From: an uncultured bacterium
GTDB taxonomy: Bacteria > Babelota > Babeliae > Babelales > Babelaceae
Direction: 5' to 3'
Length of the DNA: 64,000 nt
Assembly (NCBI GenBank): GCA_963722385.1
Contig: CAVRKK010000001.1
Coordinates: 256,001 to 320,000 of the forward strand
This document shows, one piece after another, positions 34,527 to 49,754 of this stretch; position 1 is the stretch's first letter, and each line of letters starts with the position of its first letter. The position numbers were made by a program, and so were the translations under genes. Below the pieces are notes generated by a model, which was not told the DNA's origin, ran no database searches, and was given only the letters and a program-made list of their open reading frames with translations.

Positions 34527-35693
34527 CTAAGATAATAAGAAGCTGGTTTGTGCTGTTATTTGTATATTAAGCGGCTGAATAGTTAACCATTGGGCTGGTC
34601 TATTTTCTTCATTCACATGCCCAGCAAGTATACCATACATATAAGCATATCTTATTTCAGCATCTGCTTCTATATTCCACAAAGACACTAATTGCGATAA
34701 GGCTGGATAGACAGAAAGGTTGAGCGAATGCTCGCTATCAAGGTTCAGCAAATATCTAACCATATTCTCATTTCCTTGCACTGATGCTGTTATAAGTGCC
34801 TGCTCTAGAATTCTACGGCAATCGGTTTCTTTTATTATTCGCTCTATTAAGGCCATAAAGGTAGCAAACTGCTTTTGAATGATTGCAGCTTGAAGAGCGA
34901 ATTCCATGCCATGCCTGCTCATAGGAAAGCTATTAAGGATCAAATTAAGCATGTCTAAATTTCCATTTGCTGCGACAAGGTCAAGCGCCGAATCTGCTAA
35001 TGCGGTAGGTGAAGCGAATTGGTTATTCGGTAATTGGGCAATAAGGTCCCGAGCTTCATCGAGCTGATCACAAAGAAGGCTATAAAAAAGAGGACGAAAC
35101 TTCATATACTGTGTTAACAAAGGATAGCCCTCAGATTCCACCATAGCGATTAAAGTCTTTCTATTTTCTTCGCTTAAAGTTCCGTGCTCTAGCAGCCAAA
35201 TGAGCGCAGAAGCTGCGCGAATACAATCCTCGCTATCTCTAGGGGAACTTTGATCTGCCCATTTATATGCCTCCCTAAGCGAAGCAAACGCTAAAGCAAC
35301 CATTTCATCGTAATTATCAATGAGATTTCCCCCTCGCTCAACCAGGGCATTAAGGAAAGCACCGTCACCATATACGGCGCTTGCTCGCATTATTTCACCA
35401 GTGATGCTCGCTCCATTCTTAAGTAGAATATGAGCAGCCTTTAAATTATTTTGAAGTAGGCCCAGCAAATCGTTCTTAAACTCGACGACCTCAAGTAAAT
35501 CGGATTCTTGTTCCTCCATCAGATTTGTGCTATTAGGGGGAAGAATAAACCTACATTGAGTACGACTGGTCGGTACGCTTGCTGTTTTATTTTGATCTTG
35601 GGCTGGATATTTTTTTGTTCTTCCACTTTGAGCAGAAAAAGGCATGAGTAAAGAAAAACTAAATAAAATAATATGTACGGCCGAGTATATCAT
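34527..35693 (-). CDS. secreted ankyrin-like repeat protein
   Basis: Signal peptide; ALDLVAANGNLDML and ALITASVQGNENMVRYLL repeats. Confidence 0.75.
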   Translation of the reverse strand: MIYSAVHIILFSFSLLMPFSAQSGRTKKYPAQDQNKTASVPTSRTQCRFILPPNSTNLMEEQESDLLEVVEFKNDLLGLLQNNLKAAHILLKNGASITGEIMRASAVYGDGAFLNALVERGGNLIDNYDEMVALAFASLREAYKWADQSSPRDSEDCIRAASALIWLLEHGTLSEENRKTLIAMVESEGYPLLTQYMKFRPLFYSLLCDQLDEARDLIAQLPNNQFASPTALADSALDLVAANGNLDMLNLILNSFPMSRHGMEFALQAAIIQKQFATFMALIERIIKETDCRRILEQALITASVQGNENMVRYLLNLDSEHSLNLSVYPALSQLVSLWNIEADAEIRYAYMYGILAGHVNEENRPAQWLTIQPLNIQITAQTSFLLS

Positions 35694-36841
35694 TGTTCCT
35701 CCGAAAAGGCATGGAAACTGGGCTCTTTAGAGCGCAGAGGAAATACCCTGTTAAAACTAAAACTATAACCATGAGCAGCTGAAATGATTTTACAGAAGCG
35801 GTAACTAATCCCCTGAACTGTTTTGGAAGGGGTAACAATATTAAAAGAACCGCTTGTTCTGATAGCAACCTTACCGAGGTATTTCCCTTTCTTTTTACCG
35901 TGTGGTACGCGAGCACAAATAATATCGCCTGTTTGAAACCCAAAACATTTTTTGGCAGATTTTGCGCTAGTACGAGGAAAACCATACTTATCTACTCTAC
36001 ACATTTGTCGGCTACCATGACCTATTGCTTTTATCAGGAGCGGATTAACATGATTCACCATGAGCTGCGATGGTGTAGATGCACCAACACAAGCAGCATC
36101 GAGCCAATGAGCCTTCGGTAAGTTTTGCAGATTTCTATTATATTTAGTTCTTCCACCGGTACCTGTTTCTACGGGTAAGCCGAGAGAACATAACGCATGG
36201 TAAAGATGCCAACGAACGCTATTCATCGCCGCGGCGTCTCTCAGTGACGTCTTGCCTAACTCATGTACTTCAGGATGACCAAATTCTTGCACAGTCTTAT
36301 TGCCTTTTGCCTGATTGCATGAAGTACACGCCAGAGTGAAATTTGAAATACGACTGCTACCTCCTCTGCTCTTTGGTATTATATGCTCTATTTCAAGAGG
36401 GATCCCAGATTTTTTACAATAGACGCAAGATCGGTGAAACTTTTCGAGCAAATACTCGCGAACTTCATAGCCAGCCAAGGTTCCTTGTTGATATTCGACA
36501 CCCGTAATATGGGCATTTTGCATAAGCTGCGTATCGAAACGTACCAATTCCTGGCTAATAGCGCCGATAGGACAATAACGTATAAGCTTATGGACCCATG
36601 TTATGGTATTATCTATCCTACTCTGCAATGAAGGGGCAAGCCAGCCGGCAGGCCGAGTTCTATTATCAAATCGAGATTGGCGATATCGCGTCTTTCTATT
36701 CCTTCTGCTTCTACGGAGACTTCCTCTTGCAAGAAGTTGATCGCGAATGGTGTTTCCTCTGTGCTCAATCTCTGCCGCAAAGGCTACTTGGCAGGGGTTA
36801 CAGGGTTGCTTATTCTTGTCTACGACAAACACTAAGGACAT
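35690..36841 (-). CDS. iscB: RNA-guided endonuclease IscB with internal N-terminal deletion
   Basis: AGGAG SD; VFVVDKNKQPCNPC, RRSRRNRKTRYR..RFDNR bridge helix, ELVRFD, CVYC..EHIIP.SRGG..N HNH, HWLDAAC. The RuvC-I DPG segment is absent. Confidence 0.88.
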   Translation of the reverse strand: MSLVFVVDKNKQPCNPCQVAFAAEIEHRGNTIRDQLLARGSLRRSRRNRKTRYRQSRFDNRTRPAGWLAPSLQSRIDNTITWVHKLIRYCPIGAISQELVRFDTQLMQNAHITGVEYQQGTLAGYEVREYLLEKFHRSCVYCKKSGIPLEIEHIIPKSRGGSSRISNFTLACTSCNQAKGNKTVQEFGHPEVHELGKTSLRDAAAMNSVRWHLYHALCSLGLPVETGTGGRTKYNRNLQNLPKAHWLDAACVGASTPSQLMVNHVNPLLIKAIGHGSRQMCRVDKYGFPRTSAKSAKKCFGFQTGDIICARVPHGKKKGKYLGKVAIRTSGSFNIVTPSKTVQGISYRFCKIISAAHGYSFSFNRVFPLRSKEPSFHAFSEEQ

Positions 36842-37193
36842 GACACTCCTAAAAATCTCCCCATAGGGGGTAAAGTTTGCCTCGCTCATGTTATAAGGCG
36901 GCGTATCTAAAAAGCACTGACTTAAACCCTCGGTCTGTTTAACCCTTTAGTTACAGAGCTTGGTCCGGCCTTCGTAGCCACATTACCAGCTAGAATCTGG
37001 TTTACAGCAAACTTCGGCGGAGTAGGCAACTGGCAACCCCCTTCGCTAAAGCTTCGGAGGTCAGGCGCATCCCAAGGTGTGATCTTAAGCCCTTCCTTAT
37101 AACGTAGCCGTCTTCGCTCAAGAGCTACATCGGCTAAAGCTGGTCAACCCGGGCTTCTACAAGCCGCGGCCTAAAGGCCGCTGGTTAGTTGAC
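35694..37193 (-). mobile_element. IS200/IS605-family IscB element (OMEGA), non-autonomous
   Basis: Begins GTCAAC..GCGGCCTTTAGGCCGC hairpin on the minus strand, then omega-RNA and iscB. Ends with a TTCCTCTGCGCTCTAAAGAGC..TTTCC hairpin before ATGA. No tnpA. Confidence 0.85.
36850..37193 (-). ncRNA. omega-RNA (HEARO-like) scaffold of IscB
   Basis: Blocks in canonical order: GTTGACCAGC, CTACGTT, ACACCTTGGGATGC, GCCAGTT, AGCTCTG, TTAAACAG, CAGTG, AACATGAGCGAGG. Confidence 0.85.
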
Positions 37194-40514: not shown

Positions 40515-40762
40515 CTACCAAAGTCTTTTTTGAGCAAAAGCATGTCCAGAACCCAATTTTAGACATTTTTCGAACGCTAGAGCTTTAGGTTTTTCATCAA
40601 AGCAAATATATGTTACTAGCTTCCAAGGCCTAAAATTAGCAGTATATATTGATGCGCCCGAATTATGTTTTTCCAATCGTTTCGTTGAACAAGATTAACT
40701 GTAGAACCTATATAGGTTTTTGTAGAGTCTTTTAAAGACCTGACTAGGTAAACGTAATACAT
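40515..40762 (-). pseudogene. small GIY-YIG nuclease, frameshifted
   Basis: MYYVYLVRS...TYIGST.NL.QR, then a 5-bp AACGA duplication; the shifted frame gives LEKHNSG..T...RPWKLV...AFEK.LK.GSG. Confidence 0.85.
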
Positions 40763-40924
40763 CACTGGTGCTCGAGTTCTGCTTTTGTTTTATTTATATA
40801 ACAAAAAAGCTTATAGATAACAAAGAATGGCTCTACTACGCTCTTTCAGAGCTACGAAGGGCATACTGCGCTCTACGCTTAGTGAAGAGTTCAGAAATTA
40901 TTAAACTAAATCGTTAGATATGAC

Positions 40925-40956
40925 CAGCCATACGTAGCTTTAGCGAAGTATGGCTG
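40925..40956. repeat. palindromic element with CTTCGCTAAAGCTACG core
   Basis: CAGCCATAC-GTAGCTTTAGCGAA-GTATGGCTG. Confidence 0.75.
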
Positions 40957-41145
40957 ACGTTGATCGATATGTTTAGGAACCGAGAAATCATGTTTGATTT
41001 TAGCTTAAGCAATATCCACGGGCTATTTTCCTCCTTTGAGCTAAAACTCTACATCTGAATAAATATTCTGCTGAACCAAGATACTCTTGTTTTGAACCCT
41101 ACATTAGGTTACAATAAATGTGACTTACTGTGGAGTTATTTTAGA

Positions 41146-41694
41146 ATGCAACCAATGAAAACTTTAAACGACTGGCTACTAGCGAATGCTCATAGTGAAC
41201 GTTACTTGTTTACATCACAGGACTTGAGGAGTCTCTTCCCTAATTTATCTAACGGGGCTTTTAAAACGTTGCTTTCTCGAGCAGGTCAAGCTGGTTATTT
41301 GGAAAGATTATGCAGAGGATTATATGCCTACAAAAAGGCTATTCCATCCCATGGATTATTGTTATTCCATGCAGCAGCGCTCCTAAGAAGTAAAGAATTC
41401 AATTATATCAGCTTAGAAACTGTTTTAAGCGATGCAGGTATAATTTCTCAGGTACCTATAAATTGGATTTCTATTATGTCATCAGGAAGAAGTAATAAAG
41501 TGATTTGTGGCAGATTCGGTACAATAGAATTCATCCATACTAACAAGAAGCCACTTGAGGTTATGGACCAGTTAACCTATAATGCACAGCGCAAATTATG
41601 GCAGGCGAATGTGCAGCTTGCGATCAAGGATATGAAAGCAACACATAGAAATTGTGATTTAATAGATTGGGATATTGTTCATGAATTTATTTGA
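41146..41694 (+). CDS. type IV toxin-antitoxin antitoxin, AbiEi family
   Basis: LERLCRGLY, YISLETVLS..GIISQ.P, FGTIEF; overlaps the AbiEii gene. Confidence 0.85.
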   Translation: MQPMKTLNDWLLANAHSERYLFTSQDLRSLFPNLSNGAFKTLLSRAGQAGYLERLCRGLYAYKKAIPSHGLLLFHAAALLRSKEFNYISLETVLSDAGIISQVPINWISIMSSGRSNKVICGRFGTIEFIHTNKKPLEVMDQLTYNAQRKLWQANVQLAIKDMKATHRNCDLIDWDIVHEFI

Positions 41695-42574
41695 TAAGTT
41701 AACGGAAGAAGCATTAAAAAATCAACCAAATTTCTCACATTTAAGGATAGTCGTCGAAAAAGAGTTGTTACATCACGATATCTTAAGGGTGCTTCGTGAT
41801 AATAATCTAATTTCGAGCCTTACTTTTATAGGTGGAACCTGTTTAAGGAGCTGTTATGGAGGAGTAAGGCTTAGTGAAGATCTGGATTTTACCGGAGGTG
41901 CCGATTTTTCGAGAGATACTCTTTCTGCAATGGGAGAAATACTAACCAAAAGCTTGTACGACAAATATGATCTACAGGTTACCGTAAGCGAGCCAATAAA
42001 AGATAAACAAAATGTTGATACATGGAAAATCAAAATTCAAACAAGACCAGAGAGCAATAATATACCTTCCCAGCGTATTAATATTGATATTTGTGCATTA
42101 CCTTCCTATGAAAAGCAACCTATGATGCTGCTGAATCCTTATGGCGTAGATATGGGAACATCAGGGCTCATTATACAAGTGCAAAGCCGTGAAGAGATTT
42201 ATACTGACAAACTTATTGCATTTGCGTTTAGGCCAAATCGTATCAAATACCGCGACCTATGGGATATAATTTGGCTTAATGAACAAGGAATAAAACCAAG
42301 GTTACCTTTGATCCCTAAGAAACTTAAGGATCGAGGCCACACCAAAACCACTTTTTTTAGTTTATTTGAAAAACGCATCCAGCTACTTAAAGAAAGACCT
42401 GAAACAGCATTAGAATTTAAGCATGAAATGCAACGCTTTTTACCAATAGAACACGCTAACAAAACGCTCGAACAAGAACATCTATGGAATTTTATCATCT
42501 ATTTAATAGAAGATTTAGGAGCTCAGATTCGAAAAAATTGGAATCAAGTTTGGCGAGAAGCCATAGTTAAATGA
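41681..42574 (+). CDS. nucleotidyltransferase toxin, AbiEii/AbiGii family
   Basis: FIGGTCLR...RLSEDLDF, DKLIA..R, RDLWDI. Confidence 0.92.
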   Translation: MNLFDKLTEEALKNQPNFSHLRIVVEKELLHHDILRVLRDNNLISSLTFIGGTCLRSCYGGVRLSEDLDFTGGADFSRDTLSAMGEILTKSLYDKYDLQVTVSEPIKDKQNVDTWKIKIQTRPESNNIPSQRINIDICALPSYEKQPMMLLNPYGVDMGTSGLIIQVQSREEIYTDKLIAFAFRPNRIKYRDLWDIIWLNEQGIKPRLPLIPKKLKDRGHTKTTFFSLFEKRIQLLKERPETALEFKHEMQRFLPIEHANKTLEQEHLWNFIIYLIEDLGAQIRKNWNQVWREAIVK

Positions 42575-42584
42575 TGTAAACTTT

Positions 42585-43310
42585 TCAAGCCTTCTCTATA
42601 CCTACTAATGAAAAAGTGTTGGTAGAGTTACAGTAATCTATTTCCACAACTGAACAGTTTGGTATAGGTTCAACTCGTTCAGTAAGATGAGTAATAAAAA
42701 GTTTGATAAGACCACCATGAGTTACGACAGCAACGGTTTTACCTTGTTGACTATTCGCAATATTTTTCAAGAATGTTTCTATCCGAGTAAATGATTGTGC
42801 TTTATTTTCAGCGTGAGGAACAGGCGTATGGTGCCACCGTTCCCATCGATCAGAATACCGAGCTAGCAATTGCTCATAAGCGGAAGCATAACGTTTATTA
42901 AACTCAGACTCTAGCATACCCTCGGCATCCCCATTATATATTTCACGAATATTCGAATCAGGAATAACAGGTTTTTCAAAAGCTATAGAAATTTCATGTG
43001 CTGTAGCCAAGGCCCGCTGAAGATCTGATGAATAGATAGCATCTATTTTCCTTTTGTTATTCAACAAAAGTTGTGCAACACATTTCGCTTGACGTATTCC
43101 TTCTTGGTTAATAGGAATATCAGAAAGTCCTCCTTGAATTCTTTGCTGCGTATTCCAATCAGTTTTGCCATGACGTATGAGTAAAAATTTTGTTATACAA
43201 GACGAGGTATCTTCTTGAGCATTGTTATTTATTTGGTTGGATAAAAAGTAGGCAATGATTATCGCCAGAATCGACAGAAAAGCAATGTGCAAAGCTCGTG
43301 AATAGGTCAT
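42585..43310 (-). CDS. histidine phosphatase family protein with N-terminal anchor
   Basis: LIRHG.TDWN, SSDLQRA, VVTHGG, N-terminal hydrophobic helix. Confidence 0.9.
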   Translation of the reverse strand: MTYSRALHIAFLSILAIIIAYFLSNQINNNAQEDTSSCITKFLLIRHGKTDWNTQQRIQGGLSDIPINQEGIRQAKCVAQLLLNNKRKIDAIYSSDLQRALATAHEISIAFEKPVIPDSNIREIYNGDAEGMLESEFNKRYASAYEQLLARYSDRWERWHHTPVPHAENKAQSFTRIETFLKNIANSQQGKTVAVVTHGGLIKLFITHLTERVEPIPNCSVVEIDYCNSTNTFSLVGIEKA

Positions 43311-43789
43311 AGTTTAATTTTTTTCTAGAATTATTCTATAATTTTATTAAGTATAGCATACTGGCAAGCAGAGGTAAAATCTATTTTTGAAAGGCACGAG
43401 CTTATTAAAATTATGGCCAAATATGCTACTTAGTTTCGTGCAGCTCTACCTGGACGAGCAACCAAGGGTGGTATACCTTATTGACGCATTCAAGAGCAAA
43501 CATGCTTTAATATTACATCAATTATTTTCGTGACTATAGCCGTTTTTTCCTTTTCAGGTTTTTTTAAATTTACCTGCTTTGGCCATTTAATATGTCCGGA
43601 AATATGCCCGGTCCTCAATAAAGGCCCACCTCAACGGAGGGTTCTCTATTTTCTGACTCCTCAAGGAAAGTAAGCAAGCAAAGGATTTTTGGTAGTTTCG
43701 TAATCAACCCTGCCAGTTTTTGCTTCAGGGTTTTGCAGGGTTCTTAAGTTATGCCCCAAAATAGCAAAGTTACAACTTTGGAATGATCA

Positions 43790-43915
43790 TCATGCTCATA
43801 ATTAGCATAACCATATCCTTTGCTGATAATAATTTTTCCATCTCTCGCAACTAGGACTACGCCATTAAAATTACCGTACCTTTGTATATAGGTATCGATT
43901 TTTTGAGCAAGCTTT
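43790..43915 (-). pseudogene. serine hydrolase/beta-lactamase family N-terminal fragment
   Basis: KLAQKIDTYIQRYGNFNGVVLVARDGKIIISKGYGYANYE on the minus strand, with no start or continuation. Confidence 0.6.
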
Positions 43916-44218
43916 CGATGAAGACTAAATCTTCCGATTTATAGGGTATGCTAATTTCGTATAATTGAACTCATATCCAAATTAAAGAAAAGAATTTCTT
44001 TAAAACGCACCTAACTAAGTAGCAAGCGGGTGGTCACCTCGAATGGTAGGTTAAATTCCTTTTATGATATGCTTGTGTGCAGAGGAGCTTTAAATAGCTT
44101 CCTTTTTTATGAGAAAAAACATCTTAACGCTTAATATTCTGTATTTAGGAAAGATAGATGATACAAATATTTTTCATATCAGGTTTTTTGCATCGGTTAA
44201 CCCTGTTAGCCTTTGCTA

Positions 44219-45342
44219 TAGACATCACACTTTAAAAATAGACTAAAACGGTAAACTGTTTTGGCAAAAGGGAGTGTTTTAAAATGCCAAGACAGATTGT
44301 TTTAAACCAAGCACAAATTGAAGATCTTAAAGCATTTTCAAAAAACAAAGAAACAAACACGAAAGAATCGCTGCGTAGCCAAGCGATTTTAATGCTTAAT
44401 AGAAGATTCGATTTAGGAATTATTGAAGAGCTAACTGGGTTTAAAAGAAGTTCAATATTTACATTGCGAAACAATTTTCTGCGGAAAGGAATCGACGGGA
44501 TTAGGGACAAGCGTAAAAAAAAGACTCGATCACTGCTGACTAAAGGCCAACGAACACAAATTTTAGAGACGCTCAAAAATAATACTCCTCGAGATTACGG
44601 ATTTGATGAGGATTACTGGACAACTTGGTCATTAGGACATCTTATTCGCGAGCAATATGATGTAAAATATAAATCAAAAACCTCATTGTATCTTATTTTT
44701 AAAGAAGCGCGTTTTACATTTCACAAGCCTGGAAAGGTTTATCAGAAACGTGATGAACAGCAGGTTCAGAAATGGAAAGAAGAAGTAATGCCTGTAATTA
44801 AAAAAGCCTGGAATAGTGATCAGATCGAGATATTCGCTGCTGACGAAATGATTCTTTCATCAACAACAACATTCCAAAAAATTTGGTTGCCCGCCGGCGA
44901 GTACCCTAAAATTGAGGCCACAAGCACACGAGAAAATCGGGCATTTTATGGGTTTTTAAACATAAAAACAGGCCGAGAACATGCTTTCATCACAGAAAAA
45001 CAAAACATGTATATTACGGTAGATGTGTTAAAGCAGCTTAGACGTAATTATCCGAAAAGCAGATTGCTTTTGATTTGGGATAATGCAGGATGGCATCGAG
45101 GGTCAGCCGTCCAGGAATTTTTAAAAGGAGATAAAAACATCGATTTAATCTACTTTCCAGCATATGCTCCTGAAGAAAACCCGCAAGAGAAGGTTTGGAA
45201 AGCTGCTCGCAAAAATGTTTCACATAATCGTTTCATCGATAATATCAAGCAAATATCAAATGATTTTGCTGAATTTTTAAATAACACTTTCTTTGAGTAC
45301 AGTTTGCTGGGCTTTAAGTCTAAAACCTAAATGTGATGTCTA
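44219..45342 (+). mobile_element. IS630-family insertion sequence
   Basis: Terminal inverted repeats (TA)TAGACATCACA / TGTGATGTCTA(TA) with flanking TA. Exact ends are ambiguous by 2 bp. Confidence 0.9.
44284..45330 (+). CDS. IS630 transposase
   Basis: HTH region; DDE motifs AADE, WDNAGWH, PAYAPEENPQE..W. Confidence 0.93.
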   Translation: MPRQIVLNQAQIEDLKAFSKNKETNTKESLRSQAILMLNRRFDLGIIEELTGFKRSSIFTLRNNFLRKGIDGIRDKRKKKTRSLLTKGQRTQILETLKNNTPRDYGFDEDYWTTWSLGHLIREQYDVKYKSKTSLYLIFKEARFTFHKPGKVYQKRDEQQVQKWKEEVMPVIKKAWNSDQIEIFAADEMILSSTTTFQKIWLPAGEYPKIEATSTRENRAFYGFLNIKTGREHAFITEKQNMYITVDVLKQLRRNYPKSRLLLIWDNAGWHRGSAVQEFLKGDKNIDLIYFPAYAPEENPQEKVWKAARKNVSHNRFIDNIKQISNDFAEFLNNTFFEYSLLGFKSKT

Positions 45343-45551
45343 TAGCTCATAAGTAGATACGCCAAGAATTCGGGGGTACCTAAGCGACGCATTCGGGAAT
45401 AGATAAATCAGATTTTAAGGTAATCAAACAACCTATCCTAAAACGGATCAATTTTCGCCTTTGGTTGATCAGATCGTTAAAAAGCTCTCTCAAATACTTG
45501 CTTTTGTAACATAATAATGTTACGATTATAAATCTTAAAAGTCTTGTAGAG

Positions 45552-45941
45552 GTGGCAATGGCCAAGAAACATATAGTATATACTGGTCGAGAGTTTACTA
45601 TAGAATGGTATTACGATGAACGAGGACAAAGCGGAGCTCGCGACTACTTCGACAATTTAGTTATCGAAAGAAGAAAGAAAGCATTTTATTTATTCAGGAC
45701 GATGGGAGATCTTGGAGAAATCTTAAATATTGAAAAATTTAGGAATGAAGGAGATCAGATTTACGCATTTAAGCCTAGCCCTGATAGATTCCTTTGTTTC
45801 TTTATTAAAGGGTCAAAGATTATAATAACTAATGCATTTCATAAGAAAGGCGATAAATTGCCTCAAGGTGAAAAAGAAAGAGCTCTTAAGTATAAAGAAA
45901 GTTATCTCAAAAGAATTAAACTAGGAAACTATTATGAATAA
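45552..45941 (+). CDS. type II toxin, RelE/ParE (Gp49-like) family
   Basis: IEWYYD..G.S, IYAFK..RFLCF, IIITNAFHKK..K.P..E..RA. Confidence 0.85.
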   Translation: MAMAKKHIVYTGREFTIEWYYDERGQSGARDYFDNLVIERRKKAFYLFRTMGDLGEILNIEKFRNEGDQIYAFKPSPDRFLCFFIKGSKIIITNAFHKKGDKLPQGEKERALKYKESYLKRIKLGNYYE

Positions 45942-46296
45942 AAAAGAGTTAAGCAGCTACGATGAGTTTATTGAAAGTCTTAGCCAAAAGGACCGTGAAA
46001 ACTTTGAGAAAGGATATAGAGAGTTTTTGCTATCTGAGCTGCTTCTTGCCATCATGAGAGATAATGAAGTATCGGTAAGAAAATTAGCAAAAGAAGCCGG
46101 AGTTTCCCCAACTATCGTACAAGAGTTACGATCGGGCAAAAGAAAAAATATTACTTTGCAAAACTTTGTAAGTATTCTTAGCTCATTGGGATACTCACTT
46201 ATCGTTGAAAGACGGGCAAGACAAGGCTTAAAGAAGACAAGAATGGTTCTACATAACCCGCAAAATTTTAGCAATCAGCTGTCCAAAAGTAGATAG
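45934..46296 (+). CDS. HTH (XRE) antitoxin
   Basis: SVRKLAKEAGVSPTIVQELRSG; overlaps the toxin stop. Confidence 0.85.
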   Translation: MNKKELSSYDEFIESLSQKDRENFEKGYREFLLSELLLAIMRDNEVSVRKLAKEAGVSPTIVQELRSGKRKNITLQNFVSILSSLGYSLIVERRARQGLKKTRMVLHNPQNFSNQLSKSR

Positions 46297-46304
46297 CACA
46301 TCTA

Positions 46305-47219
46305 TTGTTCAAGTCTATAGGTTTTATGGATAAAAAAGATTTATTACAGCTTATTGGCCCGCTCCCTATCAAAGTTAATTTAAACGCAAAAACAGTTGAA
46401 TTAGTAGACTGTGGGTCTTATATTCGTGAAAAAGTAGAATATAGCACTGAAAATAATGATAGAATACCTGCCTACATTCTTATACCAAAGAACTTGAAAT
46501 CTTCTATGCCGGCAATCTATTGTCATCATCAACATGCAGGCAACTTTAAACTCGGAAAAAGTGAAGTCGTAGGGCTGGCTGGGGATTCTAACCAAGCATT
46601 AGCTGTGGAACTTGTAGAGCGTGGGTATATTACTTTTGCTCCTGATGCGATTGCTTTTGAGGAAAGAAACTGGACAGAAGATAAGTCGGGTAGAGCAGAG
46701 TATTTTGAGCTAGCTACTCGTATCGTAAGAGGCTATACCCTGCTTGCAAAAGTTTTACATGATATGTCGGTAGGACTTGATTATCTAAGTAGTAGGGCAG
46801 AAGTGGATGCAACGAAAATCGGCTTTATTGGCCATTCTTATGGCGGCCGAATGGCTATTTGGTCCCCGGCATTTGATAAGCGTATAAAAGTTTCAGTCTC
46901 AAACTGCGGATGTGTGAATTATAAAGATTCTCTCTCAAGATATATTGGAATTCAAATGGAATTTTGCATTCCAAATATTATGAGATATGGAGACATCGAA
47001 GACATAGTTAAATTAATAGCTCCGATACCATTCTATATTTCAGCTACCAATGAGGATATATGGAGCAAGGGAGCTGAAAAAATCTATAATTATGCTAAAC
47101 CCTCATTTGTAGATACTGAGTTAAAATTAAAAATATGGCCCGGTAAACACATCTTTACTAGAGAAATGAGAGAAGAAGCATATTTATTTTTAGACACATA
47201 CCTTAAAAAGACTGAATAA
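46305..47219 (+). CDS. alpha/beta hydrolase (acetyl-xylan-esterase/dienelactone-hydrolase-like)
   Basis: IPAYILIP, GFIGHSYGG nucleophile elbow, GKHIF; real start may be 46326. Confidence 0.85.
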   Translation: MFKSIGFMDKKDLLQLIGPLPIKVNLNAKTVELVDCGSYIREKVEYSTENNDRIPAYILIPKNLKSSMPAIYCHHQHAGNFKLGKSEVVGLAGDSNQALAVELVERGYITFAPDAIAFEERNWTEDKSGRAEYFELATRIVRGYTLLAKVLHDMSVGLDYLSSRAEVDATKIGFIGHSYGGRMAIWSPAFDKRIKVSVSNCGCVNYKDSLSRYIGIQMEFCIPNIMRYGDIEDIVKLIAPIPFYISATNEDIWSKGAEKIYNYAKPSFVDTELKLKIWPGKHIFTREMREEAYLFLDTYLKKTE

Positions 47220-47348
47220 GATTCATTCCATATTGTGAGCTACGACTCGTGAGCATTTGCTTACTTTGTAAAAAGAGGCACTAAAATTATAATGATGCTG
47301 GCCTTTTCGCTGCAGCTAATACGAGACCCCATTCGTGACGTTGGCAAA

Positions 47349-47541
47349 GAAGGTGATGGTATATATGCTTTTAAAACTCACTATGATAGATTTCTCTGTT
47401 TTTTCTTCGAAGGCGCAAAGGTAATCGTAACTTGCAGACCAAAAGGCAAGCAATAAGATGACTCATGCAGAGAAAAGCAAATCGCTATTTCGCAGAGAAG
47501 ATTATAAAAAAAGGGTAAATTTAGGAGGATACTATGAATAG
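47349..47541 (+). pseudogene. decayed second RelE/ParE toxin copy
   Basis: EGDGIYAFKTHYDRFLCFFFEGAKVIVT and EDYKKRVNLGGYYE* match the toxin at 45552. Confidence 0.75.
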
Positions 47542-47973
47542 GAACGAAAATAAGGGTACCGTTGATTACTTCTTGAATCTTTAACTCCCAAAGAACGACA
47601 TAAGCATGAAGAAAGTTACAAAGATTTTCTTGTATCAGAAATGATTATTGCAGCTATGGAAAATGACGATGTATCCGTAAGAGAGCTTGCAAAAACGGCT
47701 GGCATTTCACCCACAACGGTACAAAATCTTCGGTCAGGTATATCAGACTCAGGAGTTAAAAGTTTGCTTAAGACTTTTAAAAGCCTTGGCTACTCAATAT
47801 TTGCCGAAAAGGGTGATGAAAGATTAACCCTTGTAGAAGCCGCAACACCTAAAAAATCTAATTTAGCTCAACGGTCAACAAAGGCTACTAAAGCAAAAGA
47901 AAAAACTAAGGCATATAAGAGAGAAATAGAAGAAATATCAACGATCGCTCCCAAAATAGCTAGACGCAAATAG
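47534..47973 (+). pseudogene. second HTH antitoxin copy, frameshifted near 47570
   Basis: AGGAGG SD; SVRELAKTAGISPTTVQNLRSG; paralog of 45934-46296. Confidence 0.7.
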
Positions 47974-48010
47974 ATAGAAACCTAAAAACCTTGTGCTTTT
48001 ATATGACTTG

Positions 48011-49754
48011 ATGAAAGCAATACTTATTGCTCGCCTAAGCACAGAAGACCAAAGAAAAGCAGGCAACTTTTTGCCCGCACCAATTACGCGACTTGAAAAA
48101 TACTGTCAAAACATAAGCTTCGAAATCATCCCAATATGCAGACTTTAATGAAAGCGCTTATTCAGATGAGCGTACAGAATTTGACCGTATTATTGATCTT
48201 ATTTTAAAGCAAAAAGAGAAGATAGCTGTTTGTTGTGATAAAGTAGATCGCTTATCACGTAATATATTTGATAAGCGGGTTCCTATCCTGTATAAGAAAG
48301 CTCTACAGGATCAAATTGAGATGCATTTTGTATCTGATGGGCAAATAATTACCAGTAAAATATCAGCTACTGAGAAATTCCAATTTGGGATCAGCCTCGG
48401 ACTTGCAAAATACTATTCAGATGCCATCAGTGATAACGTGAGGCGAGGTATTGAGCAAAAGCTTCGTAAAGGAGAATGGCCTGGCAAAGCTCCTTTTGGG
48501 TATAAAAATATTGTCTTGGAAAATGGCAAAAATGATATCGCTGTTGATGATTATAACGCAATAGTACTCAAGCAAGTATATGAGCTTTATGCAACAGGTA
48601 CCTACTCAATGCAAACCCTCCGCAAAAAGTTTGCCGACCAATATGGTATTAAGTGGTCGAGCGGCTTTATTGATATGGTGCTCAAAAATCCGTTTTATTA
48701 CGGTGTTATGCTAGCAAAAGGTAAACTTTATCCGCATCGATATCCTCCTCTTATTACTCACGCATTATTTGACCAGGTTCAGAAAATAAAAGCCTCATTT
48801 AATAAGAAGCCGGTGAAATTCGCTGGACGCCCTTATGTCTACCGAGGACTATTCCGCTGCGGCGAATGTGGATTGTACATAACGCCAGAAAAGCATAAGG
48901 GCTTGGTGTATTACCATTGCACTCAATACCATGGCAAGCATGGTGCAAAATGGTTCAGGGAAGAGACAATAACGAAGCGGTTAGGCGAAGTTTTTAAGCG
49001 TTTACAGATGCCACCCGAAATCGTAAGCGAGATAACGAGCACTCTCGATGAAGTCCAAAAAACTAAGACAGAATTCTATGACAAGCATTTGAATGAGCTC
49101 AAGAGAAAGCAAAAAGAAAACAACACCATGTTGGACAATCTTTACCTTGATAAACTCAAACGGAGAATTACTGAGGAGCAGTATGACAAATTTTACACAA
49201 CTCTCCGCGAGGAAGGTGAAGATATTGCCATCAGGCTTGAGCAATTACAGGAGGCTGATGACAACTTCAGAATCACCGCAAAATACGTTCTGGATCTAAG
49301 TAATCGAGCGCATGATCTTTTTATAAATTCAGGATTTGAAGAAAAAAGGCAACTTATTAAGCTCGTACTATCGAACTTGAGAATGGAAGGCGAAAACATC
49401 GTCTACGACGTTCAAAAACACTTCGATGTGATAATAAAAAATGGGGATGATATGCTATGGCTGGGGCGGAAGGATTCGAACCTCCGAATGCCAGGACCAA
49501 AACCTGGTGCCTTACCACTTGGCTACGCCCCAAAAATTAATTTCTATAAAACGGCTATATCGGAATCGCCAAACTCTTTGAGGACCGATTCCTCAATATG
49601 TTTTCGCATATTCGAGTTAAGCGGATGGGCAACGTCGCGAAATGAGCCATCTTTTCGTCGCCGCGAAGGCATCGATACGAACAGCCCTTTATGGCCTTCT
49701 ATAACTTTTAAGTCGCGTATAATGAAACTATCATCAAAGACAATTGTTGCGTAA
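48011..49754 (+). pseudogene. large serine recombinase (resolvase + recombinase + Zn ribbon), frameshifted near 48140
   Basis: MKAILIARLSTEDQ (catalytic Ser), then shifted DKVDRLSR, APFGY, LKNPFYYG, CGECG..YYHC. The frame runs antisense through tRNA-Gln and spoVG. Confidence 0.88.
49458..49532 (-). tRNA. tRNA-Gln(UUG)
   Basis: TGGGGCGTAGCCAAGTGGTAAGGCA-CCAGG-TTTTGGT-CCTGG-CATTCGGAGGTTCGAATCCTTCCGCCCCAGCCA. Confidence 0.97.

Follow-up and report, generated by a model that had tools for sequence, protein, structure and literature searches.

A serine recombinase gene that runs on into the tRNA gene beside it, with a second open frame beginning with the same codons 8.5 kb away, raises the question of whether a mobile element divides its own integrase gene upon integration, and what such a division would mean for the enzyme. 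We investigated this question for a 64,000-nucleotide stretch of DNA from an uncultured Babelaceae bacterium (C1:256001-320000 of a 1.6-Mb genome, in the following called the window, numbered from its first letter). The names carried by its close homologs suggest Dependentiae/Babeliales. The region concerned is an integrated, decayed 8.5-kb mobile element at the end of a tRNA-Gln gene. Its integrase belongs to a family of large serine recombinases that almost certainly insert at the CCA end of tRNA genes, with the element's attachment site (attP) located inside the last codons of the integrase gene. An original prediction, made from the sequence alone, had proposed that integration swaps the C-terminus of this enzyme.

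The integrase gene of this copy (48011..49460, plus strand) is a pseudogene. Its catalytic, recombinase, and zinc-ribbon/coiled-coil domains are matched in this order by PF00239 (E 1.7e-10), PF07508 (E 3.7e-10), and PF13408 (E 3.7e-5; at 24.5 bits slightly below the cut-off of 25.3), and the catalytic serine, Ser10 in the frame from 48011, is nearly invariant in alignment A1. The frameshift already noted in this copy was located at about 48140-48146. An assembly error was judged an unlikely cause, since no homopolymer is present and three residues invariant in A1 (S20, Q24, and P470) are altered as well. The last shared codon is the TGG at 49458-49460, the antisense of the tRNA-Gln CCA: here the recombinase frame passes from ...GDDML to W-L-G-R-K... 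and continues through the tRNA gene to a stop at 49754. The target, tRNA-Gln(ttg) (49458-49532, minus strand), is intact, and its antisense reading starts a non-conserved C-terminal extension. The core of the tRNA-side att junction, TATGGCTG (49456..49463, plus strand), recurs at the far junction (40949..40956, plus strand), where a frame from the TGG at 40951 reads WLTLIDMFRNREIMFDFSLSNIHGLFSSFELKLYI up to a stop at 41056-41058. All coordinates given in the original prediction for the two repeat copies, the tRNA-crossing frame, and the open frame at 40951-41058 hold.

The 8-mer TATGGCTG alone is no better than chance: the genome contains 75 copies, the left one is an arm of a dispersed hairpin, and a 9-nt match to the tRNA end lies within the window at 46576. 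We scored all 1,774 TGG sites on both strands of the window for a downstream tail, with only five natural fused-gene tails as reference and the first three codons ignored. The site at 40951 ranked first (score 49.5; runner-up, 18.0), and genome-wide a single other TGG site scored at least 24; it belongs to a second island, at a tRNA-Glu gene. The host arm of the far junction is a REP-like hairpin (40924..40956, no strand assigned), the original 3' flank of tRNA-Gln as judged from island-free relatives, followed outside the island by a frameshifted GIY-YIG nuclease gene (40515..40765, minus strand; PF01541 in two frames). We searched 60 relatives and read the 29 best other tRNA-Gln loci. A hairpin-type flank stands at the CCA in seven of them, and in two island-free ones (L044 and L057) a hairpin nearly identical to 40924-40956 lies directly at the tRNA-Gln CCA; a GIY-YIG gene comes next in four loci, like the one at 40515-40765 in the window. 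Deleting 40951-49457 therefore restores the layout found in island-free relatives, in which this hairpin and a GIY-YIG gene stand directly behind tRNA-Gln. The closest integrase (G008, 76%, likewise at tRNA-Gln) has its far end 26.3 kb away, consisting of a hairpin, TGGCTG, and the tail WLTLVDAFRNREIEFDFTLGRIQTLFSSLDITCIYLNL, again with the GIY-YIG gene outside the island. The guanine-cytosine content is 0.35-0.40 within the island; it rises to 0.43-0.50 beyond the tRNA on the right and is about 0.39-0.45 over the 5 kb on the left side. By four independent lines, namely the peptide rank, the island-free hairpin/GIY-YIG sites, the G008 far end, and this compositional contrast, 40949 is the true far junction.

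The integrase family was matched in 27 of 61 genomes. A tRNA gene lies directly behind the integrase gene end in 26 of the 29 other loci read. Another 159 loci yielded 146 gene ends, of which 101 border directly on a tRNA, 35 have no called tRNA, and 10 have no TGG (the locus collections overlap; distinct plus-strand elements number 93). In each of the 101 tRNA-abutting ends the in-frame TGG is positioned exactly at the CCA (offset 0), which bears out the predicted tRNA-targeting recombinase with its att site in the last codons. The targets are tRNA-Asp (36), Glu (26), Arg (14), Asn (11), Gln (10), His (2), Pro (1), and Leu (1), and the CCA of a tRNA also marks the gene end of distant homologs in Legionella adelaidensis and Neochlamydia. 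On a quick tree built from 89 cores, 17 changes of target are required, compared with a minimum of 7 and a mean of 52 after shuffling. Among 120 database proteins, Trp occupies the junction position in 116, mostly followed by antisense tRNA; P0014 carries a window-type tail and six others a related one. Natural fused genes are also present in L120 and L129. Junctions of core plus tail occur naturally in tandem arrays (C2:647394; G001), which probably explain most fused database entries.

The detached C-terminal tail of the integrase (40951..41058, plus strand) comprises 35 residues, and its first ~30 bp double as the att arm of the element. A conserved motif, W-x-x-L-x-D-x-F-R-N, characterizes such tails, and it was found in natural fused genes such as that of P0014, as the original prediction had anticipated for homologs. 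The tRNA-derived ends of integrated integrases have 3-80 residues, most often 3, and are unconserved; therefore, integration strips a module and adds nothing fixed. Thus, the C-terminus is changed by integration as predicted, but the term functional swap does not fit, since a tail is removed and only an arbitrary end takes its place.

We then looked for tails at other far ends. Upstream scans covered 81 elements over at most 8.5 kb each, so that many far ends lay beyond reach. Among the 56 elements listed, 17 sites beat every opposite-strand control, and all 17 share 6-10 nt with their own tRNA end, a feature that the score did not use. Junctions set by DNA alone, that is, by a hairpin end plus a 6-nt core (the hairpin pattern being learned from earlier matches), encode the tail in 13 of 13 cases, with frames open for 31-41 codons; for core-only DNA matches, a 30-codon open frame was present in 30 of 97. 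We also assembled a set of 29 tails (peptide-chosen, one per locus for L067, one weak match dropped). They are open for 31-48 codons in the integrase frame, and at least 25 open codons were reached in only 4/29 and 2/29 for the other frames. The proportions of synonymous (pS) and nonsynonymous (pN) differences are 0.77 and 0.37, and no such gap exists in the other two frames. Past the att arm, in codons 12-31, amino-acid identity is 33% in far-end tails versus 14% in seven integrase-less arms. Elements with more similar tails also tend to have more similar cores (Mantel rho 0.34, p 0.009, 21 elements). Judged from these sequence comparisons, the tail is coded and conserved at the amino-acid level. 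A protein search with the tail region recovered only 6 proteins of 45 candidates. We discarded the idea that, as a family feature, the tail is translated on its own from a TTG at 40960, since codon 4 is rarely a start codon.

Across the 26 elements for which both ends are available, the core common to the two runs 5-10 nt from the TGG into the tRNA and, in 15 elements, 0 nt leftward. We infer that crossover takes place at or beside the TG of this codon, and the tRNA therefore stays whole. In a comparison of the T-loop region with the element arm, shifts of 4-6 gave matches of 0.39-0.41, shift 0 also 0.41, and all others 0.09-0.32; in several second-type tails, TTCGAAC is located 5 bp farther out than in the tRNA. 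This is suggestive only of an outer motif displaced by 4-6 bp between element and tRNA arms, which would fit the attP/attB model of PMC3783163. The outer binding motif appears to resemble the universal T-loop and may thereby ease retargeting among tRNAs. A match of the gene-side motif with the LI ZD motif TTTAGTATC was rejected, as it points the opposite way. A hairpin-type arm was present at 18/26 far junctions versus 7/24 unoccupied tRNA-Gln sites (Fisher p 0.01, with kin not independent and tRNA kinds differing), hinting that hairpin-type tRNA ends are preferred targets. Hairpin plus GIY-YIG gene at tRNA 3' ends was seen in the window (40515-40956) and in L035, L044, L047, and L049.

An AlphaFold2 model of P0014 (alignment A3, tails in register) predicts two helices for the tail (484-491 and 501-510; predicted local distance difference test [pLDDT] about 80). 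In an earlier fold the tail stayed below a pLDDT of 50, because that alignment contained almost no tails of this type. The coiled-coil helices of the model span 335-382 and 388-439, and its best structural match is Bxb1 (Z 15.6, root mean square deviation 5.1, 374 aligned). Solved Bxb1, SPbeta, and phiC31 integrases align to model residues 1-470/478; therefore, the tailless form has the full canonical architecture. When the tail was docked computationally on residues 268-478, the prediction reached a score of 0.45 (best of three controls, 0.01). The calibration mark is reached by 116/157 solved and 2/215 mismatched pairs, and 18 solved pairs and both mismatches lie at 0.60 or below. The contacts agree to at least 78%, with a partner pLDDT of at least 69. 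This lends weak support to a model in which the tail docks on the zinc-ribbon/coiled-coil domain. The recombination directionality factor (RDF) of SPbeta, a small helical protein, binds DBD2 and the coiled-coil hinge (PMC11722253), that is, the same domain and hinge as the predicted docking region of the tail.

By this architecture, which we regard as almost certain, the free circle encodes the core together with the conserved ~35-residue tail; integration strands the tail at the far end, and the core gains a short or arbitrary antisense-tRNA end. For the role of the tail, we propose the following mechanism. The tail would fold back on the base of the zinc-ribbon/coiled-coil domain, where directionality factors act in known integrases. 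The full-length form encoded by the circle would integrate efficiently (attP x attB). Without the tail, the chromosomal form would differ in activity, with integration reduced and excision relatively increased, by analogy with Mx8. For a regulatory role of the tail as such, we regard the odds as even. The complete reading claims more: the tail would be a built-in directionality module removed by recombination, and the enzyme would act as an integrase when encoded by the circle and, once in the chromosome, as an excisionase that needs no RDF. These enzymes would also recognize the universal T-loop plus CCA, move from one tRNA to another, and collect cassettes that lack an integrase and are flanked by hairpin and att arm in integron-like arrays. 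We assign it a probability of roughly one in four.

The gene content of related islands bears on this question. The 27 delimited islands measure 2.9-19.8 kb (median 7.6 kb) and have in common the integrase, a putative Rep, a small open reading frame (ORF), and toxin-antitoxin pairs. A gene of ~370 residues is present in 24/27 by clustering (22 full length). Its Atlas score is 0.97, to clusters in which 25-31% of the members have PF05144 (recognition 2020); a Phage_CRI Pfam match was found in none of 14 members, and a PDB sequence search with Rep gave no match. We regard a Phage_CRI-like rolling-circle Rep as a lead for this gene, and intact elements probably replicate as circles through it. 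Neither Rep nor the small ORF was found in the island of the window. Since this copy lacks Rep and its integrase is broken, it would be mobile only with an enzyme supplied in trans. A SpoVG-like gene lies near rep in four islands (L063, L129, L243, and L248), and a small HTH_17-like gene is present in two islands.

Several observations speak against a regulatory role of the tail. The tails were picked by peptide similarity, which lowers pN/pS, and the F-R-N codons also belong to a DNA motif. The crossover axis is weak (best dyad at TG, the CA of CCA, 0.357; next 0.327; mean 0.255, standard deviation 0.043), and the weak docking pass may reflect likeness to a contiguous chain. No circular form was found, no terminal repeats were present in any locus examined, and there was no close viral match. 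The check for a circle junction and an empty site proposed in the original prediction came out negative for this genome: no such joint is listed in the contigs of four runs (X1, X2, X3, and X5), which are short and lose rare forms, so that this result is not evidence of absence. A loose end in X3 at 41011 was rejected as a circle, as it matches a paralogous arm at C2:431817, and the two best matches each from phage and plasmid collections (about 30% identity) are tRNA-abutting integrated copies. Viral contigs yielded 2 weak loci for the integrase and none for Rep. Finally, a conserved small helical ORF of 52-125 residues lies beside rep, in the same orientation, in 19/27 islands and could be an ordinary directionality factor.

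This last point leads to the main rival explanation, which we consider less probable than a regulatory tail: a separate factor, either this small ORF or a protein of a helper element, would set the direction, and the tail would be a stabilizing or activity-raising add-on whose loss only turns the chromosomal enzyme down. The conservation of the ORF and the precedent of the small helical SPbeta RDF binding DBD2 and hinge (PMC11722253) are in its favor, but the ORF has no Pfam or Atlas match, was not found in 8/27 islands, and stands where a replication regulator would be expected, beside rep and in the same orientation. A suicidal integrase is unlikely. Here, only the full-length form would be active, integration would be one-way, and excision would depend on full-length enzyme that an incoming circle or a tandem junction provides. 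A conserved and structured tail and the frequent remnants and tandem junctions would agree with this, and McMurdie et al. raised the same reading for DsiB (PMC3146451). But every canonical domain is present in the tailless core, 88/92 integrated integrase genes are open (best matches, and so biased), and L117 and L227 resemble later recombination at the tRNA-side junction. It is quite improbable that the tail has no protein role and owes its conservation to the att DNA arm and shared descent. Codons 8-10 do overlap a DNA motif, of which the other arm carries an echo, and the first 36 nt are kept at 82% in integrase-less arms; yet synonymous sites are saturated while hydrophobic positions 13-31, past the arm, are kept, and no tail frame is closed before codon 31. 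A chance 8-bp repeat, with 40949 no junction, can be dismissed: the many hairpin-borne copies of the 8-mer would allow it, but the tail match, the island-free sites, and the G008 far end refute it.

The remainder of the island in the window consists of cargo and decayed units. Next to the tail lie an AbiEi/AbiEii type IV toxin-antitoxin pair (41092..42574, plus strand; Pfam, PADLOC), a histidine phosphatase gene (42585..43310, minus strand; PF00300), and a decayed internal att arm (43468..43508, plus strand; nhmmer E 0.0017 for the window and 0.33 for the best reversed-genome control). They are followed, all on the plus strand, by an IS630-family element with 34-nt inverted ends (44215..45346, transposase 44284-45330), a second decayed att arm of the type found in the G001 tRNA-Asp array (45372..45415; nhmmer E 1.2e-10, 89% over 37 nt to L073), a Gp49-like toxin gene, presumably RelE-type, with a helix-turn-helix (HTH) gene (45552..46296; PF05973 and HTH), an alpha/beta hydrolase gene (46305..47219; domain search), and a decayed second Gp49-like/HTH pair (47292..47973; near copy at C2:429316-430057). 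The two decayed att arms indicate that the island has accreted units. An internal arm is less likely to be the integrase's own far end, as the arm cores mismatch tRNA-Gln and G008 pairs with a 40951-like tail. Between the 43468 arm and IS630, a protein-gene remnant at about 43768-43926 (minus strand) is, we assume, serine-hydrolase-like. Outside the island, 35690-36889 (minus strand) encodes an RRXRR plus HNH protein, which we take to be IscB-like.

Related arrangements were seen elsewhere. A second family island in the same genome (C2:647394-659277, tRNA-Glu) has an open integrase frame, Rep, and the small ORF, and its tail follows an older integrase remnant. About 15 tail-like arms occur genome-wide, some far from any tRNA (C2:429058-431817 and C2:480818-482615); the arm pair at C2:429058-431817 is 83-87% identical to the window tail, and the toxin-antitoxin pair that it flanks is almost identical to the one at 47292-47973. 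At the G001 tRNA-Asp locus (L087, L099, and L073), ten att arms lie no farther than about 27 kb from the tRNA. Two of these arms come after 3' remnants of integrase genes; most of the rest come after a small hairpin and divide short blocks of genes without an integrase from one another, resembling a cassette array. L117:11447-14211 and L227:6046-11860 each have an integrase with a second-type tail fused to it, next an integrase-less block, and finally a hairpin at tRNA-Asp, as though a hairpin/arm-junction unit had recombined into the tRNA-side junction. In L120, L129, and L062:14243, integrases or tails are oppositely oriented within or beside islands, suggesting inversions or nested insertions.

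SSV1-type integrases are reportedly tyrosine recombinases with attP inside int. In phage large serine integrases, the att sites are known to lie outside the integrase gene. The window family shares domain order and fold with those of phages Bxb1, SPbeta, phiC31, and LI/A118, and its 34-residue tail lies beyond the region aligning to phage integrase structures; unlike it, the phage enzymes use a separate RDF (PMC11722253, PMC3783163). The original prediction was right that an att site within the integrase gene is known for tyrosine enzymes, but it is not confined to them, as DsiB (PMC3146451) and rumA-type integrases (PMC4701971) demonstrate. DsiB belongs to the ssrA genomic islands of Dehalococcoides, and its authors proposed full function only on a circle or at a tandem junction (PMC3146451). 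As here, its 3' end always overlaps att and runs antisense into the target RNA gene, and islands occur in tandem. In contrast, DsiB has ssrA as target, a 20-bp repeat, a T-loop site, and a six-gene module (DsiA, ParB, Mom), whereas the window family has the CCA of at least eight tRNA kinds, a core of 5-10 nt, a putative CRI-like Rep as partner, and a conserved coded tail. The rumA-type serine integrases of streptococcal integrative and conjugative elements also have att inside the gene and a C-terminus altered by integration, and a functional difference between the forms was proposed (Ambroset et al. 2016, PMC4701971); they differ in their protein-gene target, reciprocal 3' exchange, and conjugative elements. 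No conjugation module is among the genes common to the 27 islands of the window family. In Mx8, attP lies inside int too, and integration replaces the C-terminus of IntP and changes its activity, but IntP is a tyrosine recombinase losing 112 residues (PMC6070905, PMC4701971). Thus, the window family appears to work like DsiB and Mx8 and belongs to neither; target and gene module set it apart from DsiB.

With Islander islands (PMC4383910) and tycheposons (10.1101/2020.12.28.424599) the family shares tRNA-gene integration, tandem accretion, and target switching. According to the Islander excerpt, no serine integrase is known to use a tRNA gene as its target, and that on tycheposons reports a large serine recombinase in 27/937 Prochlorococcus elements, with no mention of a split gene in the part seen. 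The word 'tRNA' is absent from the main text of PMC10083194, and the excerpts of PMC12884075 and PMC12424338 do not describe a split-gene tRNA layout. In the literature covered, mostly open-access and without supplements, no account turned up of a serine family that targets the CCA and has a conserved, detached tail. The att-in-gene principle for serine enzymes is already in print; new are the tRNA-CCA target, the frequent retargeting, and the conserved detachable tail.

The window copy itself is broken and matters only as a marker of this family. Its members target tRNA CCA ends, where a standard island finder had excluded serine enzymes, and because the core is only 5-10 nt, such islands would be missed by repeat-based searches; many database entries of these proteins have false C-termini. 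The 89 integrases compared, mostly about 60% identical, have switched targets at least 17 times, which makes the family a resource for learning att specificity. Control of direction is the central question for serine integrases, also as tools for genome engineering. Here, the family offers a defined natural pair, the core with or without a 34-residue tail predicted to fold, together with mapped att sites, and the idea raised for DsiB and rumA-type integrases in the excerpts cited would become simple to assay with this pair.

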